NCBI GenBank assembly: GCA_963815455.1
Contig: CAWFGO010000001.1
Location: 64,001-128,000, forward strand
Reading direction: 5' to 3'
Source: an uncultured Verrucomicrobiae bacterium
Lineage (GTDB): Bacteria; Verrucomicrobiota; Verrucomicrobiia; Chthoniobacterales; UBA10450
DNA length: 64,000 nucleotides
Part shown: positions 42,741-45,700 of the stretch, piece by piece
Numbering within the stretch: position 1 is the stretch's first letter
Layout of the letters: each line of letters starts with the position of its first letter
Program-made: the position numbers

Positions 42741-45700
42741 TCAAGCCATTTGGAGATTCGCAGCTCACGCAACGGGCTCCGCTCATTCGCTATTCATTCC
42801 AAGATCCGGACGAAGTCCTGCAATTGCGCCTTCAGGAAAATGGTTCGCGACCAACGAGTCCTTCGTCATTGGTCATTCGTCATTTCTTGCGTCTCCATGG
42901 CGCCGGCTCTGGCCGAGCCCCTTGGTTGGTGGGTTAGACAGATTCATGTCGCATATGCGACCTGAATCTGTCCTTCGCCTAAGCGGGCCTGAACGTACGC
43001 AGCTGGTGGCCCGCTTCTCGCAGCACCTGCATACGACGACGCCATGCCCGTTGCCCGAGATAATCGCGCGGCAAAATTGGCGATGGCAATAAGGGGTCGA
43101 TAGCAATCGCATTTAACCATCCGTCGCGCTCGGCTGCAGCCCAGCGCCGCAATTCCTTTGCCGCATTCTCATTCTTCAGTGCGCCGCCCGGTCGCTGGTC
43201 GATCACTTTCAGGTGCTGGACATAGCGGCGGTTGATTCGCTCGAAGTCCCAAGCGCCTGCAACAATGTCCGCATCCGATTCTCCTCCACACGGTCGCACC
43301 TCTAATAGGACCAGGGATTCCACGTTGATTTTCCCGCCACAAAGAATCTGCTCTTCTCCCTCCAACGGGTCGGGCGTAATCCAGACGCTGTTTTGTAGGT
43401 AACCAAACCCTTTGCTGCGCAGATAACGTCGCAACCGGTCCCGCTGAGAATTTTTTCGCGTGGGCACGTCGAAAAGCACCATCCGCCATTTTCCATCCCA
43501 AGGCCGAGCCCAGCGTTCTTTCGGATCGCGTCCACCAAGGACATGAAGTCGGCCTTGCGCCGTCAATCGATAGAGTCTGTCCTCCATCGCATTGGCTTTT
43601 CGCTCAATCCACTGTTGTCGTTCCAGCCTCGAAATGCGTTTGAGCATTCCATTTCGGTAGGCCCAGCTTTCGAATGAATCGTCGATATTTCGAAAACTCG
43701 GACGCATCAGTTGGTCGGCGGTCCAGAGTAAATAATAGAGAAACTCCTCGGTCTTCGGACTCACGACCGATTATCACAAAAATCTCGCGTCACTTCAAGG
43801 CCAGTTTCATGTCGCATATGCGACATGAAACTGGCCTGCTGCCGGGATGGAGATTTGGTAAAAGGCGCAGGCCGTGAATTATTGGCGCTATTGTTTGCGT
43901 CGCTTGAGAGAAGGCGCCGCTACAATCCGCCAGGGGTGGAGCAACGATCAACGACGGCGATGCTATTTCCCCGGCTCCGCACCTACGGCAACTTTGGCAA
44001 GGATCGGTTCCACGTCCGGATCGGCCTTTATCATGCCCGCTCGCAGCGCGTCACGAAATTCCTGAATCGCCTTGTTGCGCTTTTGAAAGGCGGCCTTTAC
44101 AGCAGGATCTTGCACTGCCTTTTGCTCGGCCGCGCGCAGCTTTAGCTGCTCGTCCAGCGATAAGTTATTGACCCTCTCTTCTCGCTCCCGCACCTGTTTG
44201 CGTAGATCGCTGTCATCCACCCCCTGGGAGAAAGCACACGGTGCGATCTGAGTGATAGCGAACACAACCAGCGGGAGAGCGAATGCTTTGAGTCTCATAA
44301 GAAAAAAAGTAGCACAGCGCTTCAATCTTTGCGACCAGTCCCAACACGTTGACGATAGAGTGCAGGATCGACAACGGCAGCCATTGCGTTGAGATCCATG
44401 TCCTGCTCAAGAAACCCGTTAATTTCTTTAGCTGCGCCGAGCGGTTCACGAAGAACCCGGCCATGCTCGATGCCGAGGAATCGGCAGGTGGGTTGCGTGG
44501 CCAGCCATTCTTCAATTTGGGCCAGCTGACTCGCGTAGACTTTCGCAAGCATGGCCTCGTCTGCGCTGGTTTTACCTTGCCGCTCCAGCATCACGCGCTG
44601 ACTGGCGAGAATTTCTTCCATGGGCCGCTTCATCAGGATAATGCGATATTGAAATCGGCCGTCGGTTGGAAGTTCACGTAGAAGAAGGTGAATGATCTTC
44701 ACGACCCGTCCACGCGCCTGGTCGAGCCAGAGTTTGTCGCTGCGCAGTCGTTTCACCGGCTCGAACTCAAAATAGCCACGCGGATTACTTTCATCGGGCG
44801 CGCGCAAGTCGTCCGTCAATGGAGGTAGTCCTCCCGCGACGAGCATTTGCATCATGAGCGAAGTGCCAGATCGCGGGAGTCCGCTCACGACGGTGATAAA
44901 ATCGCGCTGCATTAATCGACAGTTGGCTGAGGTAATCCCTCGGCAAGGATGCGTTTTACAATGTCACGATGTTTGTTGGCTGTTTCTGTTCGGCCTACGC
45001 GATTGGCAATTTTTGAAACGTAACGATGGGCAAGCAGGAAGTCGGGACGCATGGCCAGACAGATCTCAAACGCCTGCAATGCACGCTCGTACCAGCCGAG
45101 CCGGGAGAGGACCGCTCCGAGCTGGAAATGGGCGATTGGAAAATCGTGAAACAGAGAAATCGCCTTAAGACCGCACTGAACGCCATCTTCCAGACGCCCC
45201 TGCCGGGGAAGGGCAACACTCAGGCCGTAGTATGCTTCGGCGTTGTCCTCATCCAGTTCGAGCGATTTGCGAAATGCCGTTTCCGCTTCGCGCCAGCGGC
45301 GCAGTCGCAGACACGCCCGGCCAATCCGACAAAGTAACCACGGATCCTGCGGTCCATGAACCAAGGCACCTTCAAAATGCCGGAGCGCACCCGCGACATC
45401 GTCCGTAAGCCAACAATGGAAACCGCGGAAGAGCGCCATTTGCTTGGCATCCGGTTTTAGAACCTGGAGCTGATCCAGAACGCGACCGAGCGCCTTAGCA
45501 TCGCCCGCCGATACGGCTGTCTGACCGGCGAAAGCAACGTAGCGCGCTTCCTCGGGAAATTGCTGCGCCAACTCTTCGGCTAGAGCGAGAGCAGCAGCTG
45601 GTTGTTTGCCGTCGATGTAGCTGCAAGCCAGATTGAATTTCTGTTCTGCGCGCGCCCGGGCGATATCGCGCTGGATGTCTTCGCCAGGCGCTTCCAGATA

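Follow-up and report, generated by a model that had tools for sequence, protein, structure and literature searches.

Palindrome-bracketed genes for PaaX-like proteins with a Cas2-like core form a candidate family of mobile elements in Verrucomicrobiota

The window, a stretch of 64,000 nucleotides from the genome of an uncultured Verrucomicrobiae bacterium (G000), contains a gene for a PaaX-like protein enclosed by two palindromes. The features at this locus are listed below.

42979-43764, minus strand: gene for a 261-aa protein, an open reading frame (ORF) between the two palindromes, with a GTG start
42937-42972, no strand: downstream (3') palindrome, 36 bp with 17/18 pairs, its centre 24 nt past the stop codon
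43798-43837, no strand: upstream (5') palindrome, a perfect 40 bp with 20/20 pairs, its centre 53 nt before the start codon
43770-43798, minus strand: sigma-70-like promoter (TTGAAG, 17 nt, extended -10 GATAAT)
42761-42919, plus strand: filler DNA next to the 3' palindrome, made up of two segments that are 82-86% identical to C1:1232614-1232869 but have exchanged their order

The two palindromes are 89% alike and are predicted to form DNA hairpins (z = -6.7 and -6.8 versus 200 shuffles). Their outer edges probably mark the ends of the element. The promoter, found in a scan that returned 2 sites versus 0.6 expected, runs from the inner foot of the upstream palindrome to 6 nt before the GTG start. 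Family-wide, TTGCAT or TTGTAT occupies the inner foot of the upstream palindrome in 31/83 loci, and the distance from palindrome centre to start codon is 53 nt in 38/83. The upstream palindrome, set at a fixed spacing before the start codon, either adjoins the -35 box or provides it, which makes autorepression likely too. An earlier survey of this genome had considered that the palindromes could be autoregulatory operators; this probably applies to the upstream copy, as an additional role, but it leaves the downstream copy, the copies within genes and the mobility unexplained.

The 159-nt permuted filler is missing from the contig of a related strain which carries the same element at eno. Short tandem repeats of a TTCGTCA-type heptamer are found at 42858-42884 and recur in intergenic DNA throughout the genome. 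A sulfotransferase gene paired with a phosphodiesterase/TPR gene (44322-46936, minus strand; paralogues at C1:787657-789538) separates the element from the gene found next to eno in relatives. A REP-associated tyrosine transposase is encoded at 40436-40984 on the plus strand (NF047646, 92 bits, above cut-off).

The 261-aa protein consists of a winged helix-turn-helix (wHTH) domain at residues ~30-77, a Cas2/VapD-like ferredoxin fold at ~90-170 and a PaaX_C helical bundle at 172-255. This wHTH, Cas2-like middle and PaaX_C order is the architecture of PaaX regulators, and Pfam returned PaaX_M (E 8e-20) and PaaX_C together with a weak Cas2 match. Residues of the Cas2/VapD type are D99, R108, Q124 and S126, and the PaaX_C part contains DPLLP and Y235. 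The weak profile matches noted in the survey were reproduced: the score for the PaaX regulator model TIGR02277 is 68.7 bits versus a cut-off of 264.55, and the Cas2 profile matches residues 94-128 with 21 bits versus a cut-off of 24.5. In an alignment-based structure model (pLDDT 81, versus 35 for single-sequence AlphaFold), the best predicted fold matches were Rv0674 and E. coli PaaX, followed by Cas2 chains. Foldseek gave E 2e-8 to 3e-8 versus PaaX/Rv0674 (PDB 8a39, 3kfw, 3l09). Fold alignments with PaaX/Rv0674 reached Z 12.3 (rmsd 6.8, 210 aligned) and Z 11.9 (rmsd 8.4, 232 aligned), and those with Cas2 chains Z 8.8 (rmsd 3.4, 75 aligned). No DDE transposase chain was among the matches listed.

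The host genome, which is 90% complete, gave no tblastn hit at E 1e-3 to E. coli PaaA, B, C or K, in agreement with the survey's statement that no paa genes are annotated; PaaZ, D, E, G and Y queries retrieved generic paralogues only. No match to cas1 (PF01867) was found in this 90% complete genome, and the region 42300-44500 contained only two repeats and no Rfam CRISPR match. A second copy of the gene is located at C3:349195-349980. It is 66-67% identical to the window gene and has its own, different palindrome pair. The survey's finding of two 261-aa PaaX-like genes with a Cas2-like core, each between its own palindromes, was confirmed.

Matching proteins were found in 22/355 family genomes (14 intact, two broken full-length, five fragments and one regulator-like), a tally in which three unpublished genomes were entered as non-matching rows. 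Across the family, GTDB and phylum sets, with five loci duplicated between collections, twin palindromes were detected at 99/107 full-length Verrucomicrobiota loci with flanks, versus 1/95 displaced control windows. The regulator-like L022 (G185:C3) accounts for one of the eight negatives; it is a PaaX regulator locus with high GC and an actinobacterial look, and is possibly a contamination of the Verrucomicrobiota genome in which it was found. A pattern scan of metagenomes revealed 120 loci encoding a distant short form of ~185 aa without PaaX_C. The survey held that many metagenome homologues show no palindromes, which needs correction for the short forms: of 65 complete, distinct short forms with intact flanks, 53 have twin palindromes, and shuffles reached the score in 0/65. 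No twin palindromes flank E. coli paaX or any of seven actinobacterial-type regulators (0/8). The typical palindrome is ~34 bp long with a conserved centre CA-NN-TG, or CG-NN-CG in the short forms; conservation is also seen 13-16 bp from the centre, and the central 2 bp are variable. In Rfam the palindromes gave only sub-threshold miRNA hairpin matches.

Clustering at 90% identity gives 1,645 clusters close to the window protein; at 50% identity and E up to 1e-10 there are 2,091 representatives, some of which may be regulators. The short forms were tentatively assigned a taxonomy from atlas cluster labels alone, all scoring under 0.9. On viral contigs, 53 stretches fitted the pattern without a true homologue or a palindrome match, and all eight plasmid records are regulator-like. 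In a quick unrooted tree of long forms, short forms and regulators, which gives no direction of descent, the elements form a clade separate from the regulators.

Residue conservation offers clues to the chemistry of these proteins. In 121 distant long forms, D99 is conserved in 98%, R108 and Q124 in 100% and S126 in 99%. The 65 short forms keep R108 (100%), Q124 (98%) and S126 (100%), all outside the search pattern; D99 was part of that pattern, and its conservation in short forms is therefore no evidence. Among the eight PaaX-type regulators, D99 is absent in 8/8 and Q124 in 7/8. Y235 is conserved in the long forms, absent from the short forms and W in the regulators. Because of its absence from the short forms, Y235 is not a universal nucleophile. 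The best Tyr column in the short forms reaches 62%; without an invariant Tyr, they have no obvious covalent nucleophile except S126. PMC10491678, on Cas2/VapD nucleases, gives the beta-1 Asp and Q33/S35 of Sso Cas2 as activity residues. On the basis of the Cas2 profile match at 94-128, D99, Q124 and S126 probably correspond to this Asp and to the Q33/S35 turn, and together they supply the Asp and Q-x-S motif on a ferredoxin fold that is expected of Cas2. That the Cas2-like site is the catalytic centre is slightly favoured.

The arms of the palindromes change together. In near-identical elements 22/27 double changes were compensated, with 7.3 doubles expected. Arm symmetry can also be produced by ordinary template switching. 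An asymmetry of the 3' outer arm was seen over all elements (p = 0.01) and was lost with one element per site (p = 0.18), so no end asymmetry is claimed.

Genomic comparison confirmed, on a larger scale, the survey's observation that the cassette occurs at unrelated sites. The 101 distinct long elements occupy 66 site clusters, 55 of which are singletons with unrelated neighbours, and the 53 short forms occupy 47. Among pairs of long elements at least 90% identical, 14/30 sit among different genes. In several near-identical pairs, the alignment begins -16 to -20 from the upstream palindrome centre and stops +8 to +33 from the downstream one. The first of these points is the outer edge of the upstream palindrome, and the second lies at or slightly past the downstream palindrome. 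The elements L085 and L096 are 93.6% identical (dS 0.14), and recA of their hosts is 73% identical over 640 nt; the binning of L096 is supported by its neighbour gene, which matches its congeners. In 10/11 element pairs dN/dS is 0.14-0.20. Many copies have nevertheless remained at one site for long times, with 11 elements in one site cluster. Across the genomes compared, the element evidently changes both site and host, its mobility being seen comparatively.

The survey described the eno site as empty in relatives. Within one genus (29 loci), this was true of 19 loci, which have clean spacers of 129-158 bp without a palindrome. The other ten loci of this genus consist of five degenerate traces, one remnant, one pseudogene, one solo palindrome and two unanchored loci. 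Among family members, the site is occupied in G330 and G317, and remnants are present in G279 and G305. The solo palindrome in G305 keeps both flanks of the filled allele, and in the G279 remnant palindrome centres mark the ends of the two deletions. Empty mutS sites are 73-75 bp long, again without a palindrome. At L004 and L096, the relatives used for the empty-site comparison are too distant to align. No target-site duplication of 2-5 bp outside the palindromes was found above background at 106 loci. Filled sites often have 40-140 nt of unalignable flank, and hence the exact element ends vary. In one DNA run, of which the contigs were used, no excision joint was found.

In a quick tree, unrelated elements were found at the same site at mutS, uvrB and eno. 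Moreover, at L066 and L120 the remnant that lies between extra palindromes is the 3' end of another element. Together these cases suggest that resident palindromes are reused. They could also be ascribed to a site-specific recombinase, which would excise a circle and integrate it at an att-like solo palindrome, with crossover at the central dinucleotide. The variable 2-bp centre within conserved symmetric flanks, the solo palindrome left at G305, the remnants of other elements at L066 and L120 and the sharing of sites by unrelated elements would all suit such an enzyme. It is nevertheless very unlikely, as ancestral empty sites are mostly without a palindrome, asymmetric centres are inverted between ends (9) about as often as direct (6), inner-inner arm similarity exceeds outer-outer similarity only weakly (p = 0.08 with one element per site), and flanks are scrambled rather than conserved.

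Solo palindromes had been listed in the survey, and those of the window type were found again at C3:387111, C3:387281 and C7:4438, the two C3 copies being a doublet 170 bp apart. This doublet (C3:387111-387316) surrounds 134 nt just past a mutL-like gene and is possibly a non-autonomous derivative. A degenerate family-type palindrome lies within a 223-aa ORF at C3:630128-630160. In five gene-bearing genomes, 13, 19, 29, 7 and 7 pattern matches were found versus 2, 3, 1, 0 and 3 for the reversed pattern, and nearly all matches were true palindromes of the resident type. Among four G964 congeners, the two-gene genome has 19 matches and the three gene-free genomes have 0, 2 and 2, of which a single match is a true palindrome. 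With a stricter pattern in the window's family, matches were found in 10/21 genomes with the gene or a fragment versus 17/334 others, where they were mostly single and chance-like (reversed control, 10 genomes). As judged from these sequences, the element's palindrome type has been seeded as solo copies across the host genome.

Most examined solo copies are intergenic, and some lie inside genes. In a helicase, a loop that measures 23-26 aa in 15 homologues bears in-frame footprints of +33, +33, +36 and +57 nt in other genomes (2/23 rows of this comparison were without an anchor and 1 was mis-anchored). The +36 footprint belongs to another palindrome type than that of the two +33 genomes. The +57 footprint (two genomes) contains an older palindrome with a newer one at its centre, and it is the newer one that matches the resident element. 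At a further in-gene copy, host DNA was replaced with a net gain of 6 nt, and other solo copies carry 30-140 nt of flank. In L083, L077, L087, L094 (~757) and L393, a solo palindrome is translated in frame inside a PrimPol-helicase gene (PADLOC PrimPol E 8e-89), which adjoins the element in four of these genomes.

Such in-gene copies bear on whether the gene encodes a horizontally exchanged transcription factor, with the palindromes as operators, the solo copies as its regulon and the downstream copy as an auxiliary looping operator. The fold is shared with PaaX and Rv0674, and according to PMC9493321 E. coli PaaX binds to an inverted site of 39 bp and acts as a repressor of its own promoter. 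Furthermore, the palindrome at the -35 box and the intergenic position of most examined solo copies are what an operator would show. Copies inside reading frames and inside older copies argue otherwise, as do variable positions that remain self-complementary, which sequence-specific binding does not need. Given also the many singleton site clusters with unrelated neighbours, the lack of bracketing palindromes in all eight PaaX-type regulators and the pseudogenes or fragments in 7/22 matching family genomes, a mere regulator is quite improbable.

In G964 (L447-L460), a composite repeat of ~150-190 bp was found in 11 places, with the palindrome in a unit bounded by CCATGAACC-type sequences. This CCATGAACC-bounded unit is possibly a second repeat family of the genus, and the eleven solo copies may have hitch-hiked with another repeat system. 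The whole cassette could also be a passenger whose protein only binds and protects its palindromes, which a host or RAYT/IS200-type tyrosine transposase moves in trans. Besides the G964 units bounded by another repeat family, this is favoured by 18 RAYT-like ORFs in the window genome, one 2.7 kb from the element and one 1.3 kb from the doublet, and by a REP-like 3' flank shared by some elements (L044/L060, 138 nt). However, a RAYT was found within 1.5 kb at only 2/101 elements, which equals the 2% background, and GTAG/GTGG/CGTC tags at 16/202 ends are not above chance. Solo copies also track the gene and its palindrome type lineage by lineage, and catalytic-type residues are kept only in palindrome-flanked forms. 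Passive carriage is therefore unlikely.

REPtrons and TIRtrons are RAYT and TIRYT genes with REP or TIR repeats (PMC3733652). Compared with them, the element is similar in that one palindrome-bracketed gene is accompanied by matching dispersed palindromes in the same genome, some of them in genes, and in having several repeat-specific genes per genome and a patchy distribution. It differs in its protein, which is wHTH plus Cas2-like without an HUH motif or conserved catalytic Tyr, in its repeats, which are untagged, 32-40 bp long, loopless and one per end, and in clear recent transfer between distant hosts. An H-hydrophobic-H motif was found at any position in only 5/96 long and 2/69 short proteins, and GTAG/CGTC-tagged short hairpins, which mark RAYT repeats, at no more than the 16/202 ends.

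With PaaX/Rv0674 regulators, the element protein shares domain order and fold, and probably the binding of a long inverted site and autorepression. Unlike them, it keeps D99/Q124, which are replaced by other residues in regulators, and Y235, which is W there; moreover, there is no paa operon, and twin palindromes bracket the gene. The ferredoxin-like core, beta-1 Asp, helix Arg and Q-x-S-V turn are common to Cas2/VapD nucleases, and the palindromes are of CRISPR-repeat length. Unlike CRISPR Cas2, the protein is fused to a wHTH, no cas1 was found in the genome, and the two repeats stand on either side of the gene, not in an array. IS200/IS605 elements and their PATE-type derivatives lack target-site duplications, have hairpin-capable ends and include non-autonomous derivatives, all of which is also seen here. 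In contrast to IS200/IS605, the element is without a Y1 HUH transposase, has an identical palindrome type at both ends, sometimes replaces target DNA and carries flanks along. The target-site duplication of DDE insertion sequences is missing as well, the helicase footprints being +33/+36.

The best reading of these comparisons is a real, widespread family of REPtron-like selfish mobile elements whose enzyme would be an unprecedented candidate. It is supported by the many sites, the ends at palindromes, horizontal transfer and clean empty sites, by the way solo copies track the gene, by catalytic-type residues that regulators have lost and the elements retain, and by the lack of hits to paaA/B/C/K. 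The survey had likewise proposed a REP-like mobile or selfish element and not a phenylacetate regulator, and every comparative test run supported this. Mobilisation of the element by its own protein is probable, and the 261-aa product is a putative mobilising nuclease and autorepressor. The Cas2/VapD-type residues, the probable autorepression and a weak VapD match of one short form could also point to a VapD-like toxin or addiction gene, silenced by its own operators and spread passively. This is highly improbable, since there is no antitoxin partner, clean loss is frequent, and palindrome dispersal and element ends would be left unexplained.

For a self-mobilised element, the minimal autonomous unit would be palindrome, gene and palindrome. 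PaaX is a dimer, and by analogy the window-type protein would act as one. Its two winged helices would grip the conserved outer arms, ~13-16 bp from the palindrome centre, so that the two Asp sites of Cas2/VapD type would come to lie on the dyad centre, whose conserved sequence is CA-NN-TG (CG-NN-CG for the short forms). The dimer might then nick or cut at the centre or at an extruded hairpin, freeing palindrome-bearing DNA, which could be the whole element, a single palindrome or a palindrome plus flank. The freed DNA would be joined, with host repair, into new sites or resident palindromes; such joining would account for the filler DNA and for small deletions at the target, copying from arm to arm and the repeated use of hot spots. 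A dimer bound upstream would also block its own -35 box.

We know of no transposase or recombinase built on a Cas2/VapD fold. The odds are about even that the family represents a novel transposable element class, found throughout Verrucomicrobiota and probably in CPR bacteria, in which catalysis is carried out by an active site of the Cas2 fold. A far more speculative and unlikely extension adds that PaaX proteins are dead domesticated descendants of such elements, and that these are a living model or source of Cas2 and CRISPR repeats; in this chain the PaaX regulators are catalytically dead, and ~34-bp palindromic repeats accept insertions at their own copies. The searched literature, which included few subscription papers, contained no palindrome-flanked or mobile PaaX/Cas2-like genes, in line with the survey.

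The family would provide a direct test of stand-alone Cas2 fold function, a second independent origin of REP-like repeats and a candidate origin for PaaX. It would also offer a candidate site-specific DNA enzyme of 175-260 aa with a natural library of matched 34-bp targets. Family members are currently annotated as PaaX or CRISPR Cas2, and 6/10 short forms pass the TIGR01573 (Cas2) cut-off. Such names lead to too much phenylacetate regulation and CRISPR content being inferred, notably for bacteria with small genomes.

Variant arrangements of the family were also encountered. Longer fused forms are rare (1 among 8,000 scored). P0271, a 541-aa protein, combines the family domain with PF00521 (topoisomerase IV/gyrase A), perhaps by insertion or read-through at parC/gyrA. 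At L256, a short-form gene is preceded by three to four palindromes with ~63-nt spacing, in an array-like arrangement.
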